A stretch of DNA of 64,000 nucleotides, from assembly GCA_049303835.1 (NCBI GenBank), contig JBAQNN010000002.1, forward strand, positions 94,492 through 158,491, in the 5' to 3' direction. The stretch comes from Minisyncoccia bacterium. Its GTDB lineage: Bacteria; Patescibacteriota; Minisyncoccia; Phycocordibacterales; UBA9973. Shown here one piece after another: positions 3,465 to 42,417 of this stretch. Every line of letters starts with the position of its first letter. Positions within the stretch are counted from its first letter, which is position 1. The notes under the pieces were generated by a model that saw only the letters and a list, made by a program, of their open reading frames with translations, was not told where the DNA came from and ran no database searches. The translations under genes were made by a program, and so were the position numbers.

Positions 3465-4690
3465 TTTAGAAAGTTTCTATTCCTCATATTTTTATGATAA
3501 GCGATAGCAAAGCGGTGAGATTCACTGTTTGCTAATAAAATTTCTTTTTTATATTTCAACCCAAACTCTCTATCCCCCATTATTGCTCTGGCTTTATGAT
3601 GTTCATCTTTTACAACTGAGACTACCGGGATATTTATTTTTAATTTATTTAAAATTTTTCTAGCAATATTTATTTGCGCCATACCGCCATCCACCACTAT
3701 CAAATTCGGGTAAGTCCATTCTGTGTGGGCAAGGCGTCTTTCCAATACTTCTTTCAAGGCTCCAGTATCGTTCGCATCAGTTTGCGTTCTAATTTTAAAT
3801 TTTTTATATTCATTTTTTACCACTTCCCCATCTTCCATCACCACCATGACCCCCACCATATTTTTGCCACCCATATGCGCAATATCATAAGCCTCTATAC
3901 GAGCTCCTGAAACAAGAAAATTTTTATTCGTGTGGGCCCCGCCCGGTACTCCGGGAAGGGAGGAACGAGAAAAATTTTCTTGTTTCAGGAGTGCCACATC
4001 GTTTATGTGCTTCAGTGCAAACATTTGTCTCTTTATTTCCCCCGCTTTCTCAAATTCCTGCTTTTTAGCATACTCTTGCATTTCTTTTTTAAGATTTTTA
4101 AAAATTCTTTTCTTTTTACCCTCAAAAAACAAAATAATATTTTTTATATTTTGTTTATATAATTTTTTATCGTTCAAATCAGGAACCAGGTTTATCTGTT
4201 TATAAAATTCCAAATAGTTCTTGCTTTTCTCGTCCAAAAATGGAAAAATCCTTCGTACTATTTTTAAAGCTTCTCTGAGTTGGGAGCCATTCGGGTAAGG
4301 TCCAAAAACGTTCTTTTCATTTTTTAAATTTTTTCCTCTAACAATAATTACTTTTGGAAGTTGTTCGTCTGTGACACAAACATAATTAAAACTTTTATCC
4401 GATTTTTCTTTAGTATTATACTTCGGCTGATGTTTTTTAATGAGTTTTGCTTCCAGAATAAGCGCTTCCAAGACACTGTCTGTGATCTGCCATTTTATTT
4501 TATCCGCCTTAAAAACCATATCCACTAAGATGGGTCCCCTCGTCTGTATCAAGTCTTTCCCAAAATAACTTCTCACCCTATCTTTAAGCGACGTAGCTTT
4601 GCCAATGTAAATGATTTTCCCTTTTTCTAAGAAAAAATAGACACCGGAATTATCAGGTATTTTAAATTTTTTTAGATTTTTACTATTCAT
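3461..4690 (-). CDS. uvrC: excinuclease ABC subunit C (short form, no C-terminal HhH)
   Basis: 409 aa, GIY-YIG (GVYFF...IYIGKA), UVR domain (EFEKAGEIKRQ), then the IEAYDIAHMGG endonuclease region. Confidence 0.85.
   Translation of the reverse strand: MNSKNLKKFKIPDNSGVYFFLEKGKIIYIGKATSLKDRVRSYFGKDLIQTRGPILVDMVFKADKIKWQITDSVLEALILEAKLIKKHQPKYNTKEKSDKSFNYVCVTDEQLPKVIIVRGKNLKNEKNVFGPYPNGSQLREALKIVRRIFPFLDEKSKNYLEFYKQINLVPDLNDKKLYKQNIKNIILFFEGKKKRIFKNLKKEMQEYAKKQEFEKAGEIKRQMFALKHINDVALLKQENFSRSSLPGVPGGAHTNKNFLVSGARIEAYDIAHMGGKNMVGVMVVMEDGEVVKNEYKKFKIRTQTDANDTGALKEVLERRLAHTEWTYPNLIVVDGGMAQINIARKILNKLKINIPVVSVVKDEHHKARAIMGDREFGLKYKKEILLANSESHRFAIAYHKNMRNRNFLK
3904..3991. repeat. in-frame hairpin insertion inside uvrC (22-bp perfect stem, GC-rich core)
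   Basis: 3904-3925 CTCCTGAAACAAGAAAATTTTT is the exact reverse complement of 3970-3991. The core contains CCCGG-TACT-CCGGG. Confidence 0.7.
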
Positions 4691-4691
4691 A

Positions 4692-7358
4692 TTATCTTCT
4701 TAAAACTTTTTTAAGGTATTTACCTGTATGAGATTTGCTATTATTGGCGACTTCTTCCGGAGTTCCTTTGGCTACAATATTTCCTCCTTTCACTCCACCC
4801 TCAGGTCCAATATCTATAATGTAATCTGAGCTTTTAATAATATCAAGGTTGTGTTCTATGAGAACAACGGTATTGCCTTTGGAAACCAGTTTATTTAAAA
4901 CTTCTAAAAGCTTTTGTACGTCATCATAATGAAGCCCGACTGTCGGCTCATCTAAAAGGTAAATAGTTTTTTCTAAATGCGGACGATAAAGTTCGCTTGA
5001 GATTTTTACCCTCTGTGCTTCCCCTCCGGATAGCGTCGTCGCTGGTTGTCCAATCTCAAGATATCCTAGACCCACATCCATCAAAGTCTGTAGCCTGTCA
5101 GAAACTGCTGGAATATCTTTAAAAAATTCCAATCCTTTTTCCACCGTCATACGAAGCACTTCATAAATATTTTTCTTCTTATATTTTACAGTAAGAGTTT
5201 CTTTATCAAAACGCTTTCCTCCACACACATCACAAGTCACATAAACCGTCGGCAAAAAATGCATCTCTACGGCAATTTCTCCATTACCCTCACAAGCTTC
5301 ACAACGTCCGCCCTTCACATTGAAAGAAAAACGGTTTGCTTTCCAGCCTCGCAATCGTGCTTCTTCTGTAGAAGCGAAAAGATCTCGAATATGCGTAAAA
5401 GCACCAGTATAAGTGGCTATATTTGATCTAGGAGTCCTGCCTATTGGTGACTGATCAATCAATATCGCGCGAGAAAGATACTCCGTACCAGAAAATGAAG
5501 AACAGTTAGATACCTGCGCTGTGCGATATTTTCTTTCATAACGCGCCTGTAAATTTTTATAAAGAATTTCATACATAAAAGAACTTTTACCAGAACCAGA
5601 AACTCCAGTGATGGATGTCATCACTCCGAGGGGCACTTCCACATTCATGTTGTTTATATTAAAAATTTTTCCCCCACTTACCCTAAGCGCACCCTTGGCT
5701 TGTCGTCTTTTTTCCGGAACTTCTATTTTTATTTCTTCCCGTAAATAAGCGAGAGTTCTAGAATTATTTACATTCTTTTTGGCAGTTAATAAATCCTCTA
5801 AATAACCGGAAGCTATCACCTCTCCACCGTGCACTCCTGCCTTAGGTCCGATATCCACAATATAATCAGAAGCATAGATAGTGTCTTCATCATGTTCCAC
5901 GATCAAAATTGTATTCCCTAAATCACGAAGATTTTGAAGAGTTTTAATTAATCTATCATTGTCTCGCTGGTGAAGACCTATCGTGGGTTCATCTAATACA
6001 TAAAGCGCACCGACCAACCTAGAACCAAGCTGGGAGGCCAGACGGATGCGTTGCGCTTCTCCCCCAGAGAGCGTGTTGGCCTTACGAGACAGTTGCAGAT
6101 AGTCCAAACCGACATCCAACATAAACTGGAGCCTAGCTTCTATCTCCCTCACCACCGGCACAGATATTTCTTTCTCTTGTGGGGAAAGTTTTAAATTCTT
6201 AAAGAAGTCATGCGCATCTTTAATGGAGAGCGAAGACAATTCCAAGATATTTATTTTTTTGTTTTTATCCGCTTCTAAAAATACATTGAGAGCTTCGGGA
6301 CGCAGTCTGGCACCATGACAAGTATCACACGGCTCATCTCCCATAAAATATTTTGAACCCAAACCATTACATTCCGGACAAGCCCCATAGGGAGAATTAA
6401 AAGAAAACAGCCTCGGCTCAACTTCCGGAAAAGAAAAGCCGTCATTTTTACAAGCAAATTTTGAGGACATAATAAATTCATTATCTCCGATCTTGATAGT
6501 AACCAGTCCGTCGGATTCAATAAGCGTTCGCTCTATCGCCTCGGATAAACGCATCCTACTTGCTTCTTTGTCATCAACAAACTCATGCACCGCAAAACTA
6601 TCTACTAGAATATCTATGTTGTGAGCTTTGTTTTTAGAGAGAGTAATTTGTTCTCGCAGTTTTTTCATCGCGCCATCCAAACGGATTTCGGCAAAACCTT
6701 TGCCAAGTAAATCATAAAGCATTTGGTAATATTCCCCTTTCCTCCCACGAACTACTGGTGAAAAAATACTAATTTCTGTTTCATCAAACTCCACCCCCAT
6801 CACTTTCCTCACATTCTTTTTTGGAGTTCGGGAAGAAGAATTTTGAACGGGAAAGGTTCCAGCCGGAGGCTGGAGTAATCCGGAAAAATTCTTCTTCCCG
6901 AACTCTCCCACTTTTTCCAAAACAAAATTCAAAATTTCTTCATTGGAAAGTTTTTTAATTTCCTCTCCACACAAAGGGCAATGCGGATGTCCGATGCGCG
7001 CATACATCACCCGCAAATAATCATAAATTTCTGTGATAGTAGCCACAGTGGAACGTGGGTTATTTGAACGAGATTTTTGGTCAATAGAAATTGCCGGTGA
7101 AAGACCGGTAATCTCATCCACATCTGGTTTCGGCATTTGATTTAAAAATTGTCGCGCGTAAGAAGACAGGGATTCCACATATCTCCTTTGCCCTTCCGCA
7201 AAGATAGTGTCAAAAGCCAAGGATGATTTTCCAGACCCGGAGACACCGGTAATAACCACCATCTTATTTCGTGGCATCTCCACGTTTATATTCTTTAAGT
7301 TATGGGTCCGCGCCCCCTTAACTACTATTTTATCTATATTTTTCTCTTGTTTTGTCAT
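4692..7358 (-). CDS. uvrA: excinuclease ABC subunit A
   Basis: Two ABC modules (GVSGSGKSS twice, LSGGEAQR twice) and zinc modules. I prefer the internal start [11 protein letters not shown] at 7358 over the track start at 7394. Confidence 0.9.
6824..6905. repeat. in-frame hairpin insertion inside uvrA (21-bp perfect stem, GC-rich core)
   Basis: 6824-6844 GAGTTCGGGAAGAAGAATTTT is the exact reverse complement of 6885-6905. Inner hairpin CCAGCC-GGA-GGCTGG at 6859-6873. Confidence 0.7.
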
Positions 7359-11559: not shown

Positions 11560-14016
11560 CTACTTTACTTCTCCCAAATTTTTCCCTGAACCAGAGTGCA
11601 CCAGAAGAGGGACATCTGTTTTAAAATGAAGATATGACCGCAAGAGTACCCCCTCCATGGCTTCTTTGATTATTTTATCGGCTGTATCCAATACACCGTC
11701 TTCGGTCTCATATACTAATTCGTCGTGAATTTGTAAAATCAAATGAACCTTATCCAACATACCGGCGTTTTTTAGATCCTCTTCCGCATACCTTATGGCT
11801 AATTTAATAATATCAGCTGCTGTACCCTGTATCGGTGCGTTTGTGGCCGTTCGCTCAGCCATATTTTTTAAAAAAGGAATTCTGGAGTTAATGTTTGGGA
11901 AATAACGCCTACGACCAAATAGAGTTTCCGTATAAGAATGTTTTTCGGCAAAAACTTTTACTCCATTTAAATAGTCCCTCACTCCCCTAAACTGATGAAA
12001 ATAATTATCGTAAAATTTTTGAGCTTCTTCGCGAGTACCTCCCAGATTTTTACGCAAGGCCGAAACCCCCATGCCATAAATAATACCGAAGTTTATAACT
12101 TTTGCCTTCCGACGCATCTCGCTGTCCACTTTCTCTATCGGAACTCCGAAAACAAATGAAGCGACCCCGGCATGAATATCTTTTTTTTCTTTAAAAACTT
12201 GGGTCATCTTTTCGTCCAAAGAAAGCATCGCTGCGACCCGCAATTCAATCTGGCTATAATCAAAAGCAATAAGTTTGTGCCCTTTTTCTGCGATAAAACC
12301 ATCCCTGATTTTTTTCCCCAATTCTGTTTTTATTGGTAAATTTTGTAGATTTGGATCCTGAGATGAAAATCTGCCGGTGGTAGAGCCATTTTGAATAAAC
12401 TTAGCGTGTAGGCGACCATCATCACCCGCCATTTTAGGGATAACATCAATATAAGTGGAAAGTAATTTCTGTAATTCCCGGTAAGCCATTATTTCTTTTA
12501 TTATTTCATTCTCTTCTTCCAATTCTTCCAATACCGAAATCTTGGTAGAAAAACCTCCACTGGCATTTTTCTTTGCCTTGTTTTTACCTGGAGATTTTAT
12601 TCCTAATTTATTAAAAAGTATTTCTCCCAGTTGTTTGGGAGAATTGATATTGAATTCTGTTCCGGCCTGCTGGTATATTTTTTTTGTTAAAATATCCAAT
12701 TCTCTGTGATATTCTTCTGATAACTTTTCAAAATATTTTTTATCTATCAAGACCCCATGGTCCTCCATTTTTTTTACGATGGGTATAATCGGTTTTTCTA
12801 TTTCTTCATAAACTTTTTCAAGATTTTGTTCTTTTAATTTTTTGAAAATATGCTCATAGGCTGTTTCAAAAGATTCGGTATGCGCATAAAGTAAAATATC
12901 TTCCAGATTTGGATTAGAAATATCAGAATTGATAATCCATAAAGCAATACTAGCTTCTTGTAGTTTTTTTGAGTCCACAGAATCCTGGCGAGAGTGCTCG
13001 GAGGAATCTTCGCTACTGGCAGAAAAACCTTGCTCCTCCAGGACAGATTGCGAATGACGGAGAGCATCTTCGCCAGGATTCTGACTTTCAAAAAAGTTTC
13101 TTAAACGTCCAAGCAAACTTCTGAATTCAAATTGGGCGAAAACTTCTTCAATTTTTTTGAAATCAGCATTTTCCCAAAAAGTCTTCTCTGGCAAAGAGAA
13201 ATTTATTGGCGCATCTGTACGGATGGTCGCCAGTGTTTTTGAAAATAAAGCTTCTTCTTCGTTATTTTTTAATAGCTCAATCATCCTAGGACTAATGCCC
13301 ACTTTTTTAAATTGTAATTCGTAATTTGTACTTCGTAATTGCTTATAAATTTCTTCTATGGTGCCAAAATTTACAATCAAGTTTTCAGCCGTCTTTTCAC
13401 CTATACCTTTGATACCAATAATATTGTCAGATGGATCTCCTCGTAATCCCTTGTAGTCTGGTAAAAGCTTTGGTTTAAAACCAAAACGTTTCACTACCGC
13501 ATCCTCATCATATAAAATAGTATCGTTGATTCCCTTCTTTAGGGTATATATTTGAACTTTCTTATCATCCACCAACTGCATGGTGTCCATATCTCCGGAA
13601 GCAATAACAATATTCAGACTTCTGTCTTTTTTGTATTTCTCAACGATAGTTCCCAACACATCATCCGCCTCAAACCCGGGAGCATCGTAAATAGGAATAC
13701 TGAAAGCCTCAAAAATCTTCCGAGAGTTTTGTAATTGCACAATGAGTGCTTCGTCGGCTTTTACCCGACCGGCCTTATACGCATCATAAGCTTCGTGTCT
13801 AAAGGTCTTTTGTGGCAAATCATAGCAAGCGACGATATAGTCTGGCTTTAGCTCGGTAATTATTTTCATCAACATGCTGGAAAGTCCGTATAGTGCCCCG
13901 GTAGGTTCACCTTTTCCAGACAAAAATTCCGGCAAGGCGTGGTAAGCACGATGAATGATGGCATGAGCATCCAACAGGACCAATTTTTTATTTTTCTGTT
14001 CTTCTGTTTTAGGCAT
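11560..14016 (-). CDS. polA: DNA polymerase I
   Basis: 818 aa, 5' nuclease domain (LLDAHAIIHRAYHA), pol motifs DYSQIELRV, RRKAKVINFGIIYG, QIHDELV. Confidence 0.95.
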   Translation of the reverse strand: MPKTEEQKNKKLVLLDAHAIIHRAYHALPEFLSGKGEPTGALYGLSSMLMKIITELKPDYIVACYDLPQKTFRHEAYDAYKAGRVKADEALIVQLQNSRKIFEAFSIPIYDAPGFEADDVLGTIVEKYKKDRSLNIVIASGDMDTMQLVDDKKVQIYTLKKGINDTILYDEDAVVKRFGFKPKLLPDYKGLRGDPSDNIIGIKGIGEKTAENLIVNFGTIEEIYKQLRSTNYELQFKKVGISPRMIELLKNNEEEALFSKTLATIRTDAPINFSLPEKTFWENADFKKIEEVFAQFEFRSLLGRLRNFFESQNPGEDALRHSQSVLEEQGFSASSEDSSEHSRQDSVDSKKLQEASIALWIINSDISNPNLEDILLYAHTESFETAYEHIFKKLKEQNLEKVYEEIEKPIIPIVKKMEDHGVLIDKKYFEKLSEEYHRELDILTKKIYQQAGTEFNINSPKQLGEILFNKLGIKSPGKNKAKKNASGGFSTKISVLEELEEENEIIKEIMAYRELQKLLSTYIDVIPKMAGDDGRLHAKFIQNGSTTGRFSSQDPNLQNLPIKTELGKKIRDGFIAEKGHKLIAFDYSQIELRVAAMLSLDEKMTQVFKEKKDIHAGVASFVFGVPIEKVDSEMRRKAKVINFGIIYGMGVSALRKNLGGTREEAQKFYDNYFHQFRGVRDYLNGVKVFAEKHSYTETLFGRRRYFPNINSRIPFLKNMAERTATNAPIQGTAADIIKLAIRYAEEDLKNAGMLDKVHLILQIHDELVYETEDGVLDTADKIIKEAMEGVLLRSYLHFKTDVPLLVHSGSGKNLGEVK
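12978..13083. repeat. hairpin-forming GC-richer segment inside polA linker
   Basis: 12978-12991 CAGAATCCTGGCGA is the exact reverse complement of 13070-13083. Stem extends by TGCTC/GAGCA; inner GGAGGA (13000-13005) pairs with TCCTCC (13034-13039). Confidence 0.55.
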
Positions 14017-22875: not shown

Positions 22876-23973
22876 TTATCTATTCATTGGCATAATGAGA
22901 TAGGTAAAAGAAGAATCAGAGACCGGGGATACAACCATAGGACTTCCTGTGCCGGAGAGTTTTATAGAAACACTATCAGTGACAATTGACTGAAAACAGT
23001 CCAAAAAGTATTTATAGTTGAAAGAAAGTTCTATGTTTTCACCGTTTATAACGGCATCTAAATAAGTTTTATTTTCTCCCACATCGTTGTTGGAAGATGA
23101 AAACTCTAAAATCTTTTCTTTTGGAATAATCTTTAAATTAACTTGATTAAACTTGTCTGAAAAGATATTAGACAACTTTAAGGCATTCAATAAATCTTGT
23201 TTGAGAACCACTACCTCCGTAGTTGTGTTTTTGGGAATAATTTGACGATAATCTGGAAAAATACCGTCAATTATTCGTGAAGTTAAGTAAATGTTATCAG
23301 AAGAAAGTGAAATTTGATTTTTATTAAAACAAACCTTTAGGACCCCCTGAAATTCCCCAAAAACCTTCAAAATTTCAGCTATGTTTTTATAAGGAACAAG
23401 AATACCTGAAATTTCCTCAACCCCCTTCGCTTTTACCTTTTTTTCGGCCAACCTAAAAGAATCTGTTGAAACAAAAACCAAATTATCTCCGTTGGTATAT
23501 ATAAAAACACTTGAAATTTCTGGCTTTATATCGGAAACAGAGGAGCTATAATAAACTGATTTAATTCCCTCAATAAGTTTTTTTGATTCTATTTCAAAAC
23601 TTGTTCCCGTCACAGTGGGAATGGTTGGAAAATCTTCGTGAGGCTGACATTTTAATCTTATTTGACTTTTTTTTGTTTTAATTAAAAGATTTTCATCCTT
23701 TTTTTCCAACTGAACATTTTCATTTTGAGAAACGTTGGAAAAAATAGCGTTTAGCACCGAACCTGAGATAGCCAAAGTTCCTTCTTTTTCTATTTTAGCT
23801 GAAATTTCAACTTCAATACCCAAGTTTAAGTTGGTGGATCTCATTTTTAATGATTTACCCGAAGCAATCAATAAAATTGAGCTTAAAACGGGAAGGGTTA
23901 GATTTTTGCCGGTAATTCTCTCTACTTGAGATATTCCATTTTTGAGTTTTTCAACCGAACATTCTATTTTCAT
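22876..23973 (-). CDS. dnaN: DNA polymerase III beta sliding clamp
   Basis: 365 aa, three-domain clamp pattern, MKIECSVEKL..., position next to dnaA. Confidence 0.9.
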   Translation of the reverse strand: MKIECSVEKLKNGISQVERITGKNLTLPVLSSILLIASGKSLKMRSTNLNLGIEVEISAKIEKEGTLAISGSVLNAIFSNVSQNENVQLEKKDENLLIKTKKSQIRLKCQPHEDFPTIPTVTGTSFEIESKKLIEGIKSVYYSSSVSDIKPEISSVFIYTNGDNLVFVSTDSFRLAEKKVKAKGVEEISGILVPYKNIAEILKVFGEFQGVLKVCFNKNQISLSSDNIYLTSRIIDGIFPDYRQIIPKNTTTEVVVLKQDLLNALKLSNIFSDKFNQVNLKIIPKEKILEFSSSNNDVGENKTYLDAVINGENIELSFNYKYFLDCFQSIVTDSVSIKLSGTGSPMVVSPVSDSSFTYLIMPMNR

Positions 23974-24212
23974 ATATTTGTTTATATCTTATATAAATAA
24001 ATTATTAGTAATATTAGTGTTGTTAATAAGTGGATAATTATTTTTATATTTATTAAATATACTTATTTTTAATTTATAAACTGAACTTAAATCTAATAAC
24101 TTTTTGTCTTATGTTTATGAAAATATTTTTTATTTTTAATTTTTCTTTTTATTCGCGTTAATTAACAGATTTTGTCTGGTTTGTTATATTGTTTTTCCCT
24201 ACTTATAAACAG
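23974..24212. other. candidate oriC / DNA unwinding region (very AT-rich dnaA-dnaN spacer)
   Basis: 239-bp spacer, by eye >80% AT with A/T tracts. One near-consensus DnaA box at 24029-24037 (TTATCCACT on the minus strand). Confidence 0.5.
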
Positions 24213-25556
24213 CTATTTAAACATAATTCTTATTTGTTCCAACTCTTGCAGCAACGAAGAATCATTTTTTAAGTCAGTTTTTATTTTTAAACAAGAGTGG
24301 ATGACTGTCGTGTGATCCTTTCCCCCCAATTTTTGTCCAATTAGCGGATAAGATACATTAAAGTCTTCTCGGAGTAGATACATGACTACTTGTCTTGCTC
24401 TGACTATTTCCTTTTTTCTTGTTTTCTCATAAATTGAAGATTCTTCCAATTTATAATATTCACTCACTATCTTTACTACATCCTTTATGGCCATGTTTTT
24501 CTTTGGTCTAAGGTTGTTTTTGAGTAGATTTTTTACCTCTACAAGCGTCAATGGTTTGTTTTTTAGTTTATATTGGCAAACAATAAGGTTAAGACTTCCT
24601 TCCAGCTCCCTGATGTTTCCCTGAACTGCCCCCGCCACGTAATCTATCACCTCCTCAGCCAAATCAACATTTAATTCACGGAGTTTAACCTTTAAAATAG
24701 CCAGACGTGACTCATATTCAGGCTCAGATATGTCAACGATCATACCAGCAGCAAAACGAGACTTTAGTCTATCCGCCAGCTCTGGAATGTAGTTTGGGTG
24801 TTTGTCTGAAGAAAAGATAATCTGTTTGTTGTTTTCATAAAAAGTGTTAAATGTGTGAAAAAGTTCTTCTTGAATTTTTTCCATTTTTCCAATGAATTGG
24901 ATATCGTCTATTATTAACAGGTCGTATTTACGATATTTTTCTTTAAAAGAATTTGCTTTGTTGTTTTGGAGTGAATTTACAAAATCTGTGGCAAATTTTT
25001 CCAAGGTCATATAGTGTACCTTTTTATTTGGATATTTTTCTTTTATTGAGTTTCCCACCGCCTGAATCAAGTGTGTTTTTCCTAGTCCAGTACCTCCATA
25101 AATAAAAAATGGGTTATATTTTGTTCCAGGAGAGTCTATTATTGCCTGGGCTGCAGCATAAGCGAGCTCATTGAAAGTTCCGACGATAAACGAATTGAAT
25201 TGATAGCGTGGATTTAGGTTGTCTTCCAGATTTATGTATAAATCTTTTAGGGGTAGTTCTTTTTCTATGGTTATTTCATTTATTGGCGCTGGTTCTTGTT
25301 TTACATTTTCTGTTTTAACAATAGTATATTCTACGGCACGCATATTTTCATAGGCATCGGCAATGGTTTTGGTTATCAATTTGTGATATTTATTGATAAG
25401 CCAGTCGCGGACGAACTCGTTTGGCACCCCAATATAAACAATACCGGTATCTTCTTTTATGATGGATGTGTTTTTAAACCAGGTACTAAAATTTGCTTTT
25501 GATATACCAGATTCTATTTCCATTAGACAACTTTTCCACAACTCTTTTGTATTCAT
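24213..25556 (-). CDS. dnaA: chromosomal replication initiator DnaA
   Basis: 447 aa, AAA+ Walker A GGTGLGKTH, Walker B LLIIDDIQF, C-terminal DNA-binding HTH (GGKDHTTVIH). Confidence 0.95.
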   Translation of the reverse strand: MNTKELWKSCLMEIESGISKANFSTWFKNTSIIKEDTGIVYIGVPNEFVRDWLINKYHKLITKTIADAYENMRAVEYTIVKTENVKQEPAPINEITIEKELPLKDLYINLEDNLNPRYQFNSFIVGTFNELAYAAAQAIIDSPGTKYNPFFIYGGTGLGKTHLIQAVGNSIKEKYPNKKVHYMTLEKFATDFVNSLQNNKANSFKEKYRKYDLLIIDDIQFIGKMEKIQEELFHTFNTFYENNKQIIFSSDKHPNYIPELADRLKSRFAAGMIVDISEPEYESRLAILKVKLRELNVDLAEEVIDYVAGAVQGNIRELEGSLNLIVCQYKLKNKPLTLVEVKNLLKNNLRPKKNMAIKDVVKIVSEYYKLEESSIYEKTRKKEIVRARQVVMYLLREDFNVSYPLIGQKLGGKDHTTVIHSCLKIKTDLKNDSSLLQELEQIRIMFK

Positions 25557-29016: not shown

Positions 29017-29994
29017 TTATCTGCCATCCACTGACCAATGCCAAGGTTCGGATGGTAAGTTAGAAAGACCGTATTTACCGGCATTTGCTTGTAGCCACAC
29101 AAAGCACTTATTATCGCGGGTTTGAATAAATTTTCCATCACACTGTAGATCAAATGCCTTGCCATGGTTGTGATTTGATTGACCTGGAAGAGCTGTGGGT
29201 GGATTACATTTTGCACTTGCGTTTTCGTAGTCTCCATTACAATATTTTATTCTTAATTGTTTCTGTTGTTCTGTAGATCTATATCCCCCACCTGTTATGT
29301 TTAATCCGGCACTTTTTGATGCAACTAGCATGGCGTTAATGTTTGAAACAATATCTTTACATGCAAACATGCTAATTTGGGTTTTTACCACTCCGGCGCT
29401 ACATCCAGATGTAACTCCTGGGGGGTTCCCAGAATCGCTTGCTATTGCGTCTGCTAGTGTTACCTCTACTGTTATTTTTTCTAAACTACTCAGATCAGTC
29501 TTTAGAATATCTGGATTTATTTGGTTTAAGATTGTCCAAGCGCCCAAAGCGAGCACAAGTCCAAAAATAGCGCCAGTGATTCTATGTTTACCGTTTTCTT
29601 TATTAGATATCAGTTCACTAGTCATATACTCCAAACCACCCACCACTATCATTATCACAGCCAACACAGCGCATATACCGATGAAAATACGTATCATTAT
29701 GTTCAAATACTCACCTATTTTGGAATTTTCTCCCTCTGCGCTTGTCGGGTCAAAGGTTTTTAGTTGTCCATCTTCACACCCAGGAGTACCTTTTTCACAA
29801 GGCAGAGGGGCTAAAAAATTATATTTCAAATCATTTTCTTGTGTAGCATTTACGCAGGACACCCCATCAGGAGCAAGTATTTTATCTCCTGTGCATTCAA
29901 CTGCCAAAACAGAGTTGGTGGAGACAAAAAAACTAAAGATTAAAAAAACCAATTGTAATGAGACTATTATCTTTTTAAGCATATCTTTTTTCAT
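29017..29994 (-). CDS. fusion protein: VirB2/TrbC-like T4SS pilin domain + C-terminal M15 (VanY-like) peptidoglycan peptidase
   Basis: 325 aa: signal peptide, YNFLAPLPC motif, two hydrophobic helices (IRIFIGICAVLAVIMIVVGG, ITGAIFGLVLALGAWTILNQI), then GYRSTEQQ...SNHNHGKAFDL...EPWHWS. Confidence 0.6.
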   Translation of the reverse strand: MKKDMLKKIIVSLQLVFLIFSFFVSTNSVLAVECTGDKILAPDGVSCVNATQENDLKYNFLAPLPCEKGTPGCEDGQLKTFDPTSAEGENSKIGEYLNIMIRIFIGICAVLAVIMIVVGGLEYMTSELISNKENGKHRITGAIFGLVLALGAWTILNQINPDILKTDLSSLEKITVEVTLADAIASDSGNPPGVTSGCSAGVVKTQISMFACKDIVSNINAMLVASKSAGLNITGGGYRSTEQQKQLRIKYCNGDYENASAKCNPPTALPGQSNHNHGKAFDLQCDGKFIQTRDNKCFVWLQANAGKYGLSNLPSEPWHWSVDGR

Positions 29995-30980: not shown

Positions 30981-31012
30981 AACTCAGCCTAATTATATCA
31001 TATCTGCTTTAC

Positions 31013-31047
31013 AACTTTATAACTTTCAACTTTTGAACTTTATAACT
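31013..31047. repeat. five degenerate 7-8-nt direct repeats AACTTTNN (AAAGTT in mRNA sense)
   Basis: acAACTTTatAACTTTcAACTTTtgAACTTTatAACTa directly after the virB4 stop. Followed in mRNA sense by TGATATAAT. Confidence 0.6.
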
Positions 31048-32893
31048 ATTGTTTACCCTCAGTTTCCGCTCTCTCCTGCTCCTCCTTGGCTTTTCTGTTT
31101 GAAAGTATTTGGGAAGGGTCGGAAGTGATTATCTGGTCTTCAGTATAAGAAGAAATGACTTTTATGGCTACATGCTTTAGGCCGGCAAAGAATATTCCCT
31201 CCCCGAGGCCTGACTCCAAAAGCAGATATTTTTCTTCATCCGTCAGGTTGAAGGTTTTTTGTAAAATATCTATAGTGGTCGGTGATTGTTTAAGGAGAAG
31301 TTGAATAGAAGAGTTTGTAATGATGGGGACACCATAAGGAGATTTCATAAAGTCGGCGGCGTCTTGGGTGATGGTGGAAAGACCGAGATAATATTTTCTA
31401 CCTCTTTTGGCGATAGAGTATAAGAATGAAGCGGTGTCTTCAGATTTCATCATCCACCAAGCCTCATCTACTACCAAGAGGCGCTTTTTCAAATTTTTTC
31501 GTACGGTATTCCAGATATAATGCATGATGATATACATGGCGACGGGTTTTAACTCGTCTTCCATGTCGCGGACGGAAAATACTACGAATTTTTTATTGAT
31601 ATCCACATTGGACGGTCTGTTTAAGAATGTCGCCCAAGAACCCCTCGTATATTTGGCTAGTCTGGTGACGATTGAATCACTTCCATCCATCCCTCCGAGC
31701 ACCATTTCAAAATCTGACAGAAGAGGAGGTTCAATGTTTGAGAAATCAGATTCAGGAGTGATATCTTTCATCGCATAAGTTTCGGAAATAGCTCGGTCTA
31801 CCATTGAATCTTCTTCAGGGGTGAGTCCGCCTAGCATCAATCTGAAAAGCCCTACCAAGTTTATGATATTTGAACGGAGGACATCTTCGGCTGTTTCGCC
31901 TTCGTGAGGAATAGGTAAATCAAAAGGATTGATGTGGTGATCGGAAGAAAGAGAAATATTGAAATATCTTCCACCGACCGCCTCTGACAAGAACTCGTAT
32001 TCCCTTTCCGGATCTATCACTATGACATCAACATCAAACATTAAAGATCTCAAAATTTCTAGCTTAGTGGCATACGATTTTCCGGAGCCGGACTTGGCAA
32101 AGGTCACGGAGTTGTAATTCTCTAGTGAAAATCTATCAAAGATGACTAGGCTGGAATTGTGCCTGTTGATGCCGTAAAGTATTCCTTTGTTGGAAGTCAG
32201 GTCAAAAGAAATAAATGGGAATACACTACTAAGTGGTTCAGAATTCAACTTCTGATGAATACCAAGTATGTCTGTATTTATGGGTATGACGCTCTTAAAA
32301 CCGTCTTCTTGTTGGAAGAGAGCCGGTTTGATATAGATGAGTTTTGATTCAAGGATTGATTTTATCTCATTTTCTATTTTGAAAAGTTCCAACTCGTTGT
32401 CGGCATAAATGGTGATGTAAATACCCACATCAAACATTTTTTCTTGCGCTTGGATCAGATTATTGCGCAGGCCCTCTAGGTCTTGGTAGGCAGTATCAAG
32501 CATAGGGTCGCGCACCATACCCTTACTCTCTCGTACACTTATCTGACTCTGCACCTCGGCGACTTTTTTCTGAAATTGTCTCAAGACCAGAGAAGTGTCT
32601 ATCGGATGAATAAAAATTGAAATATCAAAAACTTTATCCAGATTGATTATAGGAGAGAACCAATTGTCTGTCAGAAATCTAGGATAGGAAATGATGAAAA
32701 AAGTACGAGCGATTTTATCTCCCAAGCTTATGGATTTAGACGATATTTTCAGAGCTGAAGGAGCGATGACATCTTGGAGCTCCAGGGTGGCGGATTGGTA
32801 GATTTCTTCCGGCATCACTGCCAAGACGGAAGCTCTCACTTCCTTTTCCTCCCCTCCTTTTTGTCCACCTAATAATTTTTTTAAAAAGTCCAT
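31046..32893 (-). CDS. virB4: VirB4/TraE-type T4SS ATPase, C-terminal 3/4 (split gene, part 2)
   Basis: 615 aa, Walker A AKSGSGKSY, Walker B LLVVDEAWWMM, ITQDAADF. The N-terminus matches the DxIAPS...yP region that sits at about aa 215 of single-chain Gram-positive VirB4 homologues. Confidence 0.85.
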   Translation of the reverse strand: MDFLKKLLGGQKGGEEKEVRASVLAVMPEEIYQSATLELQDVIAPSALKISSKSISLGDKIARTFFIISYPRFLTDNWFSPIINLDKVFDISIFIHPIDTSLVLRQFQKKVAEVQSQISVRESKGMVRDPMLDTAYQDLEGLRNNLIQAQEKMFDVGIYITIYADNELELFKIENEIKSILESKLIYIKPALFQQEDGFKSVIPINTDILGIHQKLNSEPLSSVFPFISFDLTSNKGILYGINRHNSSLVIFDRFSLENYNSVTFAKSGSGKSYATKLEILRSLMFDVDVIVIDPEREYEFLSEAVGGRYFNISLSSDHHINPFDLPIPHEGETAEDVLRSNIINLVGLFRLMLGGLTPEEDSMVDRAISETYAMKDITPESDFSNIEPPLLSDFEMVLGGMDGSDSIVTRLAKYTRGSWATFLNRPSNVDINKKFVVFSVRDMEDELKPVAMYIIMHYIWNTVRKNLKKRLLVVDEAWWMMKSEDTASFLYSIAKRGRKYYLGLSTITQDAADFMKSPYGVPIITNSSIQLLLKQSPTTIDILQKTFNLTDEEKYLLLESGLGEGIFFAGLKHVAIKVISSYTEDQIITSDPSQILSNRKAKEEQERAETEGKQ

Positions 32894-32900
32894 AATTGTA

Positions 32901-32975
32901 TTTAGGCTTTAGCTTTTAGGCTCTAGGCTCTAGCTTTTGAGTTTGCTAATGCCTAAGGCCTAGTTGCCTAGCGCC
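32901..32975. repeat. heptad hairpin element copy A, (NNTAGGC)n - loop - (GCCTANN)n
   Basis: TTTAGGC TTTAGC TTTTAGGC TCTAGGC TCTAGC / ttttgagttt / GCTAAT GCCTAAG GCCTAGT TGCCTAGC GCC. It fills the gap between the two virB4 parts. Confidence 0.8.
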
Positions 32976-33614
32976 CTACTCTATTTTAATCTTACCCTCC
33001 AATTCTCCGGGGTTGAAAACTTTATAAAATACTTCCACTACTTCTTCGGTATTCAGCTGGGCCGAATTTATTCCACAACGAGACAATCCTTGCTGGATGA
33101 CAGCTACCCTCTCTTCTAGTTGAGATCTCTTCTCTTCAAAATCTATCTGTTTTGCGGCTCGCACTTCTTCTGAATTCTTTTTGGAAAATAGCTTTCCCAA
33201 TATCCCGGAATCTGATTTTAAAGTTGTACGTGAATATGGTATTACAATAAAGAAGTTTTTTGTCATGATACTGACAGATTCAGTAAAGCTTCTTATAAAC
33301 TCTATATATTCCCTAGTTTGCAACTTGATCAACGGCTCATTTTGCACTTTTACTCTGTTTTCTAAAAGGAGTAAATAAGGTCTGATGTCCAGCCTTCTGG
33401 ATTGGACTGATATCTGTACCGGAAAATCCAAGGTGTTTAAAAAATTTTGAAATTGAAGAATGGTCGCATGTTGTTCATCGGAAGATTTCAAGGATAGGTT
33501 GACCGAGTTTGCGAGTACGATGGCTCGGAGCTCACCTTCTTTTAGCACGATGATGCCATCGCGTATCTCTTTGATTGGTATAAATTCTTGTGTTGCTTTT
33601 GCTTTTAATGCCAT
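32976..33614 (-). CDS. virB4: VirB4 N-terminal domain (split gene, part 1)
   Basis: 212 aa, ATQEFIPIKEIRDGIIVL...NLSLKSSDEQHATILQFQNFLNTLDFPVQI resembles the N-terminus of Tn916 Orf16/PrgJ-type VirB4 (recalled from memory). Confidence 0.65.
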   Translation of the reverse strand: MALKAKATQEFIPIKEIRDGIIVLKEGELRAIVLANSVNLSLKSSDEQHATILQFQNFLNTLDFPVQISVQSRRLDIRPYLLLLENRVKVQNEPLIKLQTREYIEFIRSFTESVSIMTKNFFIVIPYSRTTLKSDSGILGKLFSKKNSEEVRAAKQIDFEEKRSQLEERVAVIQQGLSRCGINSAQLNTEEVVEVFYKVFNPGELEGKIKIE

Positions 33615-33623
33615 AAATTTTTT

Positions 33624-33700
33624 CTAGGGCTTTAGGCTCTAGGCGTTAGGCTTTAGCTTTTGTTTCGCTAGAGCCTAGTGCCTAAGGCCTAGCTGCCTGC
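33624..33700. repeat. heptad hairpin element copy B
   Basis: CTAGGGC TTTAGGC TCTAGGC GTTAGGC TTTAGC / ttttgtttc / GCTAGA GCCTAGT GCCTAAG GCCTAGC TGCCTGC. The last 12 nt supply the end of the prgI-like ORF. Confidence 0.8.
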
Positions 33701-34129
33701 ATTTTTCTTTTTACTCAAATCAAGCACGTCCAAGCTCCAGGCCAAATCTCGCAACCTACTTCCATCCAATTTTGAACTGACATTTGGCAGTACTTCATTT
33801 TTATTTTCATCCATGTTTGTAGTTTGCGATTTATTATTTGCTACCCTACCGGTCTTCTTCTTCCAAATATAAAGTTTGTTTTGAGAAAAATATTTAAACC
33901 CTGCTTCAATCATGTTTATAAAAGGCTTATTGTTTGGTTTATAGAAAGTAAGAGCTAAAGAAAACCCGGCGATAATCAAAATAGGGATGGCGCTAAAGAC
34001 GAGCCCTAATAATTTATAAAGCACAAAACACAAACCTGCTCCGCCGGCCAAATAAGCAAACTCCCTAAAAGTAAAAGGGCCGAATATTTTATCTTCTATT
34101 TCTAAAAATTGTGGAACCTTGAATTGCAT
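33689..34129 (-). CDS. PrgI-family (VirB3-like) two-TM T4SS protein
   Basis: MQFKVPQFLEIEDKIFGPFTFREFAYL then two TM helices. I prefer the ATG at 34129 over the track GTG at 34141. Confidence 0.65.
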   Translation of the reverse strand: MQFKVPQFLEIEDKIFGPFTFREFAYLAGGAGLCFVLYKLLGLVFSAIPILIIAGFSLALTFYKPNNKPFINMIEAGFKYFSQNKLYIWKKKTGRVANNKSQTTNMDENKNEVLPNVSSKLDGSRLRDLAWSLDVLDLSKKKNAGS

Positions 34130-34140
34130 AAATACAGGCA

Positions 34141-34542
34141 CTAGGCTTTAGGCGCTAGGCTCTAGCTGAGAAATTAGTTTATTCAACATTTTCATAATTT
34201 CTTCTAATAAAGAACCCACTTTATTATAATCTAATTTTGCAGTTTTGGGTAATTTTTTAGATATTATTAGCTGAGTTTCTAGCTCCGCACCAGAAGCAAA
34301 GGCAATAAGTAAGAATCTTTTGAATTCTGGAATTCCTCCTCGCATTTTCCCTTCTGCAATATTAGAAGGTATGGATACTGCCGCCCTACGAATTTGTGAG
34401 GTTAAACCATAAATTTCTTCCTTCGAAAATTTGTCTGTGAGTTCATAAACTGCTATTACAAGCTCTATCGATTTTTGCCACACGACTAAATCTCTATATG
34501 TTTTCATGTGTTTTTTACTAGCGCCTAATGCCTAGAGCCTAG
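34141..34542 (-). mobile_element. heptad hairpin element copy C carrying a four-helix-bundle (IVS-type) gene in place of the loop
   Basis: Left arm 34141-34166: CTAGGC TTTAGGC GCTAGGC TCTAGC. Right arm 34518-34542: CTAGC GCCTAAT GCCTAGA GCCTAG. By hand pairing the arms form a ~26-bp helix around the ORF. Confidence 0.55.
34148..34507 (-). CDS. four-helix-bundle protein (23S rRNA intervening-sequence protein family)
   Basis: 119 aa, MKTYRDLVVWQKSIELVIAVYELT...SIPSNIAEG...AELETQLIIS, the signature pattern of this family. The last codons (LEPSA) are encoded by the repeat arm. Confidence 0.85.
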   Translation of the reverse strand: MKTYRDLVVWQKSIELVIAVYELTDKFSKEEIYGLTSQIRRAAVSIPSNIAEGKMRGGIPEFKRFLLIAFASGAELETQLIISKKLPKTAKLDYNKVGSLLEEIMKMLNKLISQLEPSA

Positions 34543-34548
34543 AAAATA

Positions 34549-41562: not shown

Positions 41563-42417
41563 CTAGTTTTTAGCAAGCATTGACCAGTCTGATAGTGACA
41601 AATCTTCCGCTCTTTTATCTCCCAAGTTTGCCGAAGACAATTTTTCGGTAGAAATCAACCCTTTTAGGTTTGAAGAAAGCTTTTTGCGCTTGTGGGCAAA
41701 GCCATTTTTCACTATTTCCCAAAATTTTTCTTCATTTATTTTATTTTTATAAAAAAATTGACGAGAAATATTTTTTATCTCAATGATTGCCGAATCAACC
41801 TTGGGCTCGGGAGAAAAATACCTCTTATTTACCTTCATAACCATTTTCGGTTCCCCATATGCCTTCACGGAGATAGAAAGGATACTCTCCTTCCCGTCTC
41901 TGGCGACTATTCTAGACGCCACCTCGTGCTGAACCATGAGCACCATACGCTCTGGCTGATTTTCTGCTGTCAAAAATTTTTTTAAAATAGCGCCAGTGAT
42001 GTTGTAAGGAATGTTGGCAATTAGCTTATAGCTACACAAAATATTCTCGGACTCACCACGCATATTCACCTGCTGGTGAATTGCTTTTCTCGCGCCGTCG
42101 CGCTGCGAAGAGGTTCGCTCTAGAACATTTTGTTTCAGGTTAAAGTTCAAAATATCTTCATTTATTAACACAAAAGCACCTAACTGAATTTGTGTGGCAA
42201 ATTTGGTTTTTAAAAACTCAAAAAGTTCTCTATCTTTTTCTACTGCTACTACAGTGGCTCCGGTCTGTAGAAGTTTTTCTGTTAGCGCTCCCTTGCCCGG
42301 ACCAATCTCTAGGACAACATCACCAGGTTTTATTTCTCCCGCCTCGATAATCTTCTTGAGAGCTAGCTCAGATTTCAAAAAATTCTGTCCAAGTGATTTT
42401 TTTGCTTTGTGTATCAT
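41563..42417 (-). CDS. rsmA: 16S rRNA (adenine1518/1519-N6)-dimethyltransferase RsmA/KsgA
   Basis: 284 aa, SLGQNFL, VLEIGPGKGALT, ANIPYNIT motifs. Confidence 0.9.
   Translation of the reverse strand: MIHKAKKSLGQNFLKSELALKKIIEAGEIKPGDVVLEIGPGKGALTEKLLQTGATVVAVEKDRELFEFLKTKFATQIQLGAFVLINEDILNFNLKQNVLERTSSQRDGARKAIHQQVNMRGESENILCSYKLIANIPYNITGAILKKFLTAENQPERMVLMVQHEVASRIVARDGKESILSISVKAYGEPKMVMKVNKRYFSPEPKVDSAIIEIKNISRQFFYKNKINEEKFWEIVKNGFAHKRKKLSSNLKGLISTEKLSSANLGDKRAEDLSLSDWSMLAKN
42036..42133. repeat. in-frame GC-rich hairpin insertion inside rsmA (homologous to the pcrA copy)
   Basis: Closing stem ACAAAAT.TTCT / AGAA.ATTTTGT. Hairpin ATTCACC-TGCT-GGTGAAT (42064-42081) and hairpin GCGC-CGTC-GCGC (42092-42103). 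Confidence 0.7.

Follow-up and report, generated by a model that had tools for sequence, protein, structure and literature searches.

The window, by which we mean the whole 64,000-nucleotide stretch of DNA that was analyzed, encodes the VirB4 ATPase of a type IV secretion system (T4SS) in two consecutive genes, one for a TrsD-like protein of 212 amino acids (aa) and one for a VirB4 protein of 615 aa. Patescibacteria normally have this two-gene form, which has been published before, and the hairpin that fills the spacer between the genes (hairpin A) is very probably a later, incidental, and dispensable insertion next to a VirB4 that was natively two-cistron. A sequence-only reading had offered two explanations: either the element split an essential ATPase, or the junction of a natural two-piece VirB4 was colonized. 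Comparison with relatives upheld the second and refuted the first. The features concerned are listed in Table 1.

Table 1. Features at and around the trsD/virB4 junction, in window coordinates
Feature	Coordinates	Strand	Description
Spacer downstream of virB4	30981..31045	(-)	GTTATAAAGTT-type repeats
virB4 (TrsE-like) gene, 615 aa	31046..32893	(-)	~40-aa head, second half of VirB4 N-terminal domain and RecA-like ATPase domain
Hairpin element A	32894..32975	(-)	82-bp imperfect palindrome of [C/T]TAGGC-N heptads; occupies the entire trsD/virB4 spacer
trsD-like gene, 212 aa	32976..33614	(-)	Free-standing homologue of VirB4 N-terminal domain residues 1 to ~200; Pfam PF26593 "TraC-like", NCBIfam TrsD/TraD
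Hairpin element B (TAGGC family)	33615..33688	(-)	prgI/trsD spacer; outer stem overlaps last codons and stop of prgI
prgI (VirB3-like)	33689..34141	(-)	PF12666 PrgI, E = 1.2e-8
Element C	34136..34548	(-)	TAGGC-type inverted arms (34136-34158 and 34518-34540) around a 23S_rRNA_IVP gene

Judged by its sequence, the 615-aa protein is a VirB4 ATPase of the CD1110 type. It matched profile NF045971 (conju_CD1110) with 364.5 bits, above the curated cutoff of 325, over profile positions 182 to 733 of 752, and it also carried Pfam matches to PF19044, PF12846, and PF01935. Residues 234 to 590 matched the VirB4 C-terminal domain structure 4AG5 in the PDB (E = 1e-37), and a Walker A motif (SGSGKS, near residue 270) and a Walker B motif (LLVVDEAW, near residue 473) mark the RecA-like C-terminal domain. 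The N-terminal domain is incomplete on this chain: profile positions ~1 to 180 are missing from it and are supplied by the 212-aa open reading frame (ORF). As had been noted from the sequence, the 615-aa ORF begins about 40 aa ahead of the DxIAPS motif, which reads DVIAPS from residue 41.

The proposal that the 212-aa ORF is a homologue of the VirB4 N-terminal domain was borne out by its Pfam record, by profile mapping, and by a fold match. A precomputed PF26593 match (E ≤ 1e-5) is on record for P0001, a protein identical to the ORF product, and for every relative; our own Pfam scan of the ORF returned no match even at E ≤ 10, and the PF26593 model is apparently missing from the copy scanned. 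Profile NF041427 (TrsD/TraD) aligned over positions 15 to 200 of 201 (E = 2.8e-6), scoring 27 bits against a curated NCBI cutoff of 200. Similarity to staphylococcal TrsD was marginal (27 bits; hhalign of a TrsD-family profile against pSK41 TrsD, E = 3.9e-4 with a probability of only 36%), and a phmmer search against PDB sequences gave no match. Since the NF041427 score lies far below the cutoff and the hhalign probability is low, family membership rests mainly on PF26593, on operon position, and on the structural match, in which a predicted TrsD model retrieved TrwK in a fold search. Proteins of the TrsD/TraD family are homologous to the N-terminal part of VirB4, as is the 212-aa product, and are free-standing products of ~200 to 230 aa encoded between genes for a PrgI/VirB3-like protein and a VirB4-like ATPase. 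The corresponding order prgI, trsD, virB4 is found in the window, in more than 150 relatives, and in pSK41. Two of the motifs that had been proposed for this domain were present, N.SL.S..EQ (as NLSLKSSDEQ) and F..FLN (as FQNFLN), but TQ..IP....DGI was off by one residue: the region reads TQEFIPIKEIRDGI, with a gap of 5 residues rather than 4 between IP and DGI. The annotation of the 212-aa "hypothetical protein" should read TrsD/VirB4-N.

The geometry of the junction was largely as the sequence-only reading had described it. On the minus strand the two ORFs lie 82 bp apart, at the coordinates first given for them, and because 82 is not a multiple of three (remainder 1), they are in different frames. 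An in-frame TAG lies 10 codons beyond the first stop of the 212-aa ORF, and a TAA 18 nt ahead of the virB4 ATG stops the virB4 frame. The core arms of hairpin A span positions 32902 to 32928 and 32945 to 32975. Arm distances had been given as 1 nt to the upstream stop and 7 nt to the ATG, which was essentially right, although the stop directly abuts the right arm and the virB4 ATG (at 32893) lies 4 to 8 nt past the left arm, the exact figure varying with the pairs included. In the minimum free energy (MFE) structure (-31.4 kcal/mol; z = -2.6 relative to dinucleotide shuffles, 3 of 200 of which folded as well), the trsD stop codon (32976-32978) pairs within the outer stem. The two-ORF arrangement recurs unchanged on an independent contig, L004.

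We then compared the junction among relatives, counting loci with both gene ends readable (77 near relatives and 79 GTDB species representatives, 156 altogether); the genome scan used an 8-sequence alignment (A2), a 44-sequence alignment (A1) being too diverse. All 77 near relatives, with TrsD 77 to 100% identical, had a gene of ~205 to 222 aa with its own stop, followed by virB4, and the two-gene form was likewise present in all 79 species representatives (55 to 87% identical; Nomura-, Zambryski-, and Taylorbacteria, and Paceibacterota). Both ORFs are full length in more than 150 genomes (55 to 100% and 67 to 92% identical). A check had been proposed of whether orthologues are single-chain and lack the element: none of the 156 is single-chain, and most have no hairpin. 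Spacers of at most 10 nt occur in 33 of the 77 near relatives and 49 of the 79 species representatives, for example, TAA-TATT-ATG in L002, and lengths of 1, 2, 4, 5, 6, and 7 nt are all represented; with spacer length so varied and no fixed frame relation, recoding into a single chain is not expected. The nearest relatives, L173 and L174 (TrsD 99% and 97% identical), have a hairpin-free spacer of 26 nt. In hairpin-free L002, the C terminus of TrsD (...GKIKIE) and the N terminus of VirB4 (MDF[LF]KKLLGG...) are the same as in the window. A recent survey of Patescibacterial T4SSs reports that TrsD is distantly homologous to the VirB4 N terminus and more abundant in Patescibacteria than any other T4SS component, that 1,664 of 2,272 homologues are associated with a VirB4 encoded nearby, and that it is essential in "Ca. 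Southlakia epibionticum" (PMC12102498).

Single-chain VirB4 proteins, such as TrwK of R388, the CD1110/Tn916 type, and those of Colwellbacteria, provide the complementary view. The two products of the window cover complementary, nonoverlapping stretches of full-length VirB4 profiles and together span the whole profile. Alignment to full-length VirB4, as had been proposed, confirmed that they fit successive parts: in a fused Patescibacterial VirB4 of 797 aa (P0262), residues 4 to 214 align to residues 4 to 207 of the 212-aa protein (37% identity), and residues 230 to 790 align to residues 39 to 598 of the 615-aa protein (55% identity). Unlike single-chain VirB4, the window has two polypeptides, with ~43 residues (TrsD tail plus VirB4 head) in place of a linker of ~15 residues. 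Fused proteins of 780 to 800 aa are found in Colwellbacteria, another Patescibacterial lineage; two "600-aa" VirB4 entries of the fused clade (P0289 and P0385), considered as secondary splits, turned out to be artifacts of N-runs in scaffolds. An AlphaFold2 model of P0262 built with 38 homologues (pLDDT 64, pTM 0.50) was too poor to judge the TrsD-VirB4 interface; its predicted N-terminal secondary structure agrees with that of the TrsD model, and the linker region is of low confidence.

Outside Patescibacteria, a close likeness is to the pSK41/pGO1-type monoderm conjugation systems (MPF_FATA, pGO1 subclass), in which a VirB3/PrgI-like protein is likewise followed by a protein of ~210 to 230 aa and a VirB4-like ATPase of ~615 to 670 aa. 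In pSK41, trsD (227 aa) and trsE (672 aa) are separated by 14 nt, where the window has the 82-bp hairpin. The TrsD/TrsE break falls at the same position as the break in the window, ~35 to 40 residues ahead of the DxIxP motif, and a BLASTP alignment of the 615-aa protein to pSK41 TrsE (E = 5e-32) begins at residue 41 of the former and residue 36 of the latter. The cluster in the window is chromosomal and adjoins dnaA/dnaN; no relaxase was seen near it. The Patescibacterial T4SS of PMC12102498 (Microb Genom 2025) has the same components near dnaA, dnaN, and ksgA: TrsD, PrgI, VirB4, a VirB2-like pilin, and a VirB6-like protein. The true start of prgI is likely the ATG at 34129, giving a protein of 146 aa; PrgI proteins in relatives have 141 to 146 aa.

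Hairpin A is no chance palindrome, since copies of the same family occupy the next two operon spacers (elements B and C). The arms of element C (23 nt, 91% complementary, 359 nt apart) enclose a gene at 34148-34507 for a 119-aa 23S_rRNA_IVP protein (four-helix bundle, Avd-like; PF05635, E = 6e-36). TAGGC family members were found in 10 of 169 loci. Element B has orthologous copies in L027, L028, L031, and L044, and L173 carries a different, TAGCT-type hairpin at that site. At the trsD/virB4 site, hairpins very similar to hairpin A are present in L013, L087, and L093 (TrsD 80 to 86% identical) and missing from L173/L174 (97 to 99%) and L002/L005 (91 to 92%); because the copies in these more distant loci are so similar to hairpin A, repeated loss or recombination, and not a recent gain, could account for the closer relatives that lack it. 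Inverted-repeat arms, three related copies, and an orthologous site that is filled in the window but empty in close relatives are traits of mobile palindromes. Comparison of filled and empty sites placed the insertion point at or beside the stop codon (TA/A) and revealed no clear target-site duplication. No transposase was identified; full-size cassettes bear only a PF05635 or GIY-YIG ORF. A search of the hairpins against Rfam returned no family, and a scan for promoters and terminators found no such site in them.

Insertions at this junction are common. In 29 of 77 near relatives and 24 of 79 species representatives, about one third of relatives, the trsD/virB4 spacer holds an insert of at least 35 nt. 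The prgI/trsD spacer is colonized at the same rate (31 of 82 and 29 of 74 loci), and the coincidence of hairpin and gene junction therefore carries no special meaning. Many unrelated hairpin families are represented among the trsD/virB4 inserts, sometimes with a gene for a 23S rRNA intervening-sequence (IVS) protein inside inverted arms; GTTATAAAGTT-type repeats, another family, fill this spacer in several relatives. The 25 IVP ORFs that were scored in these loci all point the same way as the operon. When duplex energy was used to test for inverted arms beside them, they stood apart from controls only weakly (median, -38 versus -32 kcal/mol), and we do not claim hairpin flanks for every IVP gene.

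Neisseria Correia/NEMIS and enterobacterial ERIC/REP elements are transcribed intergenic palindromic repeats of 70 to 150 bp with inverted-repeat arms, several copies per genome, and strain-level presence/absence polymorphism. The hairpins in the window resemble them in being short, multicopy, polymorphic between close strains, and located in transcribed operon spacers with inverted arms. They differ in that their arms consist of 7-nt TAGGC units, forming 6-bp helices parted by 1x1 mismatches, and in that their full-size relatives bear a 23S_rRNA_IVP gene rather than a transposase. In the latter respect they are like 23S rRNA IVSs with a PF05635 protein, which have a long stem and an optional PF05635 ORF in the loop, but they sit between protein-coding genes and not in rRNA helices; no rRNA was found in the window.

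A case could be made that the hairpin, on inserting, cut what had been a single-chain virB4 into two ORFs that still work: it takes up the entire spacer and touches the upstream stop, and fused forms exist in Colwellbacteria. We regard this as extremely improbable, because every one of the 156 relatives is split, mostly without a hairpin and including the nearest at 97 to 99% identity, because the protein ends at the junction are the same in hairpin-free L002, and because pSK41 has the same break point. There is almost no chance that the ORF pair represents an assembly frameshift, a decaying pseudogene, or a single product joined by programmed frameshifting or readthrough. In the fused clade, some VirB4 entries of "600 aa" did arise from scaffold gaps, but here the independent contig is identical, both ORFs are full length and conserved in more than 150 genomes, both frames are stopped inside the spacer, and the frame relation varies among relatives.

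Hairpin A may nevertheless have a function. It could be a selected RNA element, an RNase III site or a 3' stabilizer that uncouples or tunes trsD versus virB4 in a highly expressed operon. Its stability (-31 kcal/mol) is consistent with this, as are the strong hairpin or inverted arms and the unpaired A/U-rich leader before the ATG that characterize every insert at this site in relatives, the shared orientation of the 25 IVP ORFs, and the use of the same arms around the IVS-protein gene of element C, given that rRNA IVS stems are RNase III substrates (PMC11270868). We consider such selection unlikely, however, since a spacer of 1 to 10 nt suffices in about half of the relatives and the sequence family of the occupant varies even between genomes 97 to 99% identical. 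The 11 TAGGC-type hairpins showed no compensatory changes, which is uninformative because their stems are sequence-invariant, and Rfam offered no match.

In the arrangement that we favor, a native two-cistron VirB4 with an incidental spacer insertion, the host would be a Paceibacteria-type Patescibacterium (Minisyncoccia/Nomurabacteria-like) with a chromosomal, origin-proximal type IV secretion cluster. The VirB4 N-terminal domain would be divided between TrsD (first half) and the TrsE-like VirB4 (second half, plus the ATPase), with the break inside a linker ~20 to 40 residues ahead of the conserved DxIxP, as in pSK41/pGO1-type monoderm conjugation systems. The two proteins would be made separately and, we infer, associate into a complete VirB4 protomer at the membrane beside PrgI/VirB3. 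One copy of a small family of TAGGC-heptad intergenic palindromes would have entered at or next to the trsD stop, in a spacer otherwise of 1 to 28 nt, leaving both proteins unchanged and a short unpaired A/U-rich leader ahead of the virB4 ATG. The element would lie exactly at the split because only the spacers of a tightly packed, essential operon tolerate insertions. Once transcribed into the polycistronic mRNA, it would fold as a stable stem-loop that might be processed (e.g., by RNase III), stabilize the transcript, or be selfish or neutral.

Heptad-built inverted arms around a 23S_rRNA_IVP/Avd-like gene make up an IVS-like cassette, in which other families have a GIY-YIG gene. A tentative possibility, on balance doubtful, is that hairpins A and B derive from such a cassette and lack its ORF, the cassette being actively mobile in Paceibacteria, targeting stop-codon and spacer sites of the origin-proximal, essential T4SS operon, and being excised from the polycistronic mRNA by RNase III as an "mRNA intervening sequence." Because occupants differ at 97 to 99% TrsD identity, the cassette, if real, would represent a class of mobile element that turns over quickly and has not been described so far. 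Our literature search on 23S rRNA IVS proteins, PF05635, and Patescibacteria found no description of such intergenic cassettes, and the passages of PMC12102498 that were searched do not discuss intergenic hairpins, IVP cassettes, or fused versus split VirB4 (Colwellbacteria versus the Nomurabacteria type).

The split as such adds little that is new: a two-gene VirB4 is the published and conserved state of both Patescibacteria and pSK41/pGO1-type systems, and it does not stem from the hairpin. The break point shared by staphylococcal plasmids and Patescibacteria, together with the fused proteins of Colwellbacteria, offers natural split and fused pairs in which to test N-terminal domain assembly of VirB4. 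For the poorly described, fast-turnover hairpins and IVP/GIY-YIG cassettes of ultrasmall bacteria, the spacers in this essential operon amount to a natural experiment. These hairpin and IVS-like cassettes are the part worth following, and if the mobile-cassette interpretation is true, the trsD/virB4 junction would be one of their hot spots.

The sequence-only reading described virB4 as two ORFs with a hairpin between them, an arrangement that was confirmed by the ORFs, the intervening spacer, its fold and its arms. Because the spacer is 82 bp long, the 212-aa (trsD-like) and 615-aa (virB4, TrsE-like) ORFs lie in different frames, and stop codons within the spacer close both of these. The spacer forms a long imperfect hairpin (hairpin A; −31.4 kcal/mol, z −2.6), and 3 of 200 shuffled sequences folded equally well. 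The trsD stop codon adjoins the right arm and is base-paired within the outer stem of the MFE fold, and the virB4 ATG lies 4 to 8 nt past the left arm. DVIAPS starts at residue 41 of the 615-aa ORF, in agreement with a predicted start about 40 residues before DxIAPS; the peptide motifs claimed were also present, except that one spacing was off by one.

The 615-aa ORF encodes a VirB4 ATPase. It scored 364.5 bits against NF045971 (NCBIfam, CD1110-type VirB4; curated cutoff, 325), spanning only profile positions 182 to 733 of 752, matched P-loop_TraG, AAA_10, and DUF87 in Pfam, and aligned over residues 234 to 590 with 4AG5, the crystallized C-terminal domain of a Gram-positive VirB4 (E = 1e-37). 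Judged by its profile matches, the 212-aa ORF is the counterpart of the N-terminal part of VirB4, as previously suggested: it matched N-terminal segments of the full-length profiles VirB4_plasma (positions 101 to 237 of 894; E = 2.6e-11), CD1110 (1 to 75), and TIGR00929 (3 to 177). The free-standing TrsD/TraD profile matched at positions 15 to 200 of 201 (E = 2.8e-6), far below its curated cutoff, and the precomputed Pfam domain PF26593 (“TraC-like”) is present in all database relatives of the 212-aa protein. In P0262, a fused patescibacterial VirB4 of 797 aa, residues 4 to 214 align with the 212-aa ORF (37% identity) and residues 230 to 790 with the 615-aa ORF (55% identity). Together, the profile matches and these alignments indicate that the two ORFs are complementary pieces of one VirB4, with the break falling inside the N-terminal domain, about 20 to 40 residues ahead of the DxIxP motif.

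Two origins had been proposed for this arrangement, namely, that insertion of the hairpin split virB4 or that the junction of a natural two-piece VirB4 was colonized. We compared 80 metagenomic loci (TrsD 77 to 90% identical; both gene ends readable in 77), 80 GTDB species-representative loci from Nomurabacteria, Zambryskibacteria, Taylorbacteria, and Paceibacterota (TrsD 55 to 87% identical; both gene ends readable in 79), and several closer contigs. A gene of about 205 to 222 aa with a stop codon, followed by a virB4 gene, was found in 77/77 and 79/79 loci, with a spacer of 10 nt or less in 33 and 49 of them, respectively, and the order prgI-trsD-virB4 was constant among relatives. Among more than 7,800 homologues of the 212-aa protein, the best 120 all measured 211 to 216 aa, and a single fused protein occurred among the best 150 clusters (50% identity). 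In L173 and L174, which were the nearest relatives identified (TrsD 99% and 97% identical), a 26-nt spacer without a hairpin separates the genes; in locus L002 (91% identical), the junction reads TAA-TATT-ATG, and the TrsD C terminus and VirB4 N terminus are the same as in the window. These hairpin-free two-gene relatives refute a split by insertion; the natural two-piece VirB4 with a colonized junction is the correct reading. Recoding that joins the two ORFs is not expected either, since spacers of 1, 2, 4, 5, 6, and 7 nt in relatives preserve no frame relation.

A natural two-piece VirB4 is already known, both from pSK41 and from published statements on Patescibacteria. On pSK41, trsD (227 aa) and the downstream trsE (672 aa) are 14 nt apart, in the same two-gene order as in the window, and a small gene (trsC position) precedes trsD. 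Residue 41 of the 615-aa ORF aligns with TrsE from residue 36 onward (E = 5e-32), and thus the break point is the same in both. According to PMC12102498 (Microb Genom 2025), TrsD is the most abundant type IV secretion system (T4SS) component recovered from Patescibacteria, VirB4 is associated with 1,664 of 2,272 TrsD homologues, and “Ca. Southlakia epibionticum” requires TrsD as an essential protein; a dnaA/dnaN/ksgA neighborhood of the T4SS is also described. The window T4SS shares this neighborhood and thus lies near the origin, as has been reported for the T4SS of Paceibacteria. The L001 to L003 orthologues of the 325-aa ORF in the window carry an NLPC_P60 domain in place of the VanY-type domain, indicating that the cell wall hydrolase module was swapped.

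Colwellbacteria, another patescibacterial lineage, uniformly have a fused VirB4 of 780 to 800 aa; “600-aa” proteins from this clade (P0289 and P0385) were rejected as gene-calling artifacts of 100-nt N-runs within the gene. Hairpins also occur in the prgI/virB4 spacers of the clade's loci L171 and L172. Some TrsD-family representatives exceed 212 aa (P0238, 364 aa; P0174, P0211, P0243, and P0260, 390 to 445 aa), and none had a BLASTP match to the window VirB4. The TrsD match of P0238 begins at residue 148, and this protein might be a PrgI-TrsD fusion.

Coordinates of the features in the window and in related loci (L-numbers)
Feature	Position	Strand	Remarks
212-aa ORF (trsD)	32976-33614	minus	Upstream partner of 615-aa ORF
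615-aa ORF (virB4)	31046-32893	minus	Downstream of 212-aa ORF
trsD/virB4 spacer (hairpin A)	32894-32975	minus	82 bp
325-aa ORF	29017-29994	minus	T4SS pilin domain (PF18895/TrbC) and C-terminal VanY-type D-Ala-D-Ala carboxypeptidase domain
dnaN, dnaA, ksgA-like rRNA adenine dimethylase	22876-25556 and 41563-42417		Flank T4SS cluster
TAGGC-heptad hairpins (family of hairpin A), next two spacers	33615-33688 (hairpin B); arms 34136-34158 and 34518-34540		
TAGGC-type cassette	34136-34548; arms 34136-34158, 34518-34540; ORF 34148-34507	minus	Just upstream of prgI
IVP ORF in trsD/virB4 spacer	L114:4140-4560, L123:4134-4584, L154:1498-1978, L163:4122-4617		
TAGCT-type hairpin (prgI/trsD spacer) and hairpin-free trsD/virB4 spacer	L173:1426-1500 and 2140-2165; L174, same coordinates		
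Scaffold-gap artifact loci	L171:1213-1667, L172:1171-2052		Colwellbacteria clade

Inserts of at least 35 nt occupied the trsD/virB4 spacer in 29/77 metagenomic and 24/79 species-representative loci and the prgI/trsD spacer almost equally often (31/82 and 29/74), showing that the trsD/virB4 junction is not a special target. The inserts belong to many unrelated families, including the TAGGC type of the window (also in L013, L087, and L093, with remnants in L031 and L098), perfect palindromes, e.g., CAAGGCAAGACCTTGTAC and GCTAGGCAAGACCTAAC, CCCGTTAGAAGC-type long hairpins, TAGCT-type hairpins, and TTATAAAGTT-repeat arms. The TAGGC family was present in only 10 of 169 loci; its stems are sequence invariant, which makes covariation uninformative, and the hairpin matched no Rfam family or promoter-like or terminator-like site. 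In L173 and L174, at 97 to 99% TrsD identity, the hairpin type in the prgI/trsD spacer differs from that of the window, and hairpins therefore turn over much faster than coding sequence. The window spacer downstream of virB4 (30981-31045) is built of GTTATAAAGTT-like repeats, a type that fills the trsD/virB4 spacer in L009, L012, L020, L023, L044, L066, and L088; in L114, the arms flanking the IVP gene consist of it. Three more perfect or near-perfect inverted repeats (3904-3991, 6824-6905, and 12978-13083; arms of 21 to 22 nt, 40 to 62 nt apart) did not match the TAGGC family and may represent other hairpin element families.

The cassette upstream of prgI holds a 119-aa 23S_rRNA_IVP (IVP) gene (PF05635, Avd-like four-helix bundle) within TAGGC-type inverted arms, the 3′ arm coding for the final codons and stop of the ORF. 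Hairpins A and B resemble copies of this cassette that lack the ORF. Four species representatives carry a 420- to 500-bp insert with an IVP ORF in the trsD/virB4 spacer; the ORF lies visibly between repeat-built inverted arms in L114 and is frameshifted or decayed in L163. Upstream of prgI in L005 (2154-2456), a GIY-YIG ORF sits inside CCCGTTAG-type arms of a different hairpin family. Of the IVP ORFs in the retrieved loci, 25 were scored, and every one runs in the same direction as the T4SS operon. The literature searched on the 23S rRNA intervening sequence (IVS) protein, PF05635, and Patescibacteria contained no description of hairpin/IVS-like cassettes with such rapid turnover.

The two cistrons are conserved and map to complementary parts of VirB4, and hairpin A is dispensable and polymorphic. 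TrsD and the 615-aa protein would assemble into a VirB4-like protomer, as the fused homologue and a TrwK match suggest; the fused form, as modeled with AF2, was of too low quality to reveal a TrsD-VirB4 interface. Hairpin A would be cotranscribed as a stem-loop between the cistrons and is probably tolerated because it disrupts neither coding sequence and spares an unpaired A/U-rich leader. That it serves in regulation or RNase III processing seems unlikely, and its patchy distribution gives such a role no support. A hairpin at the split is expected if the spacers of a compact, essential operon are the only places where selfish hairpins can persist. The hairpin/IVS-like cassettes, with their rapid turnover, offer the more interesting lead.
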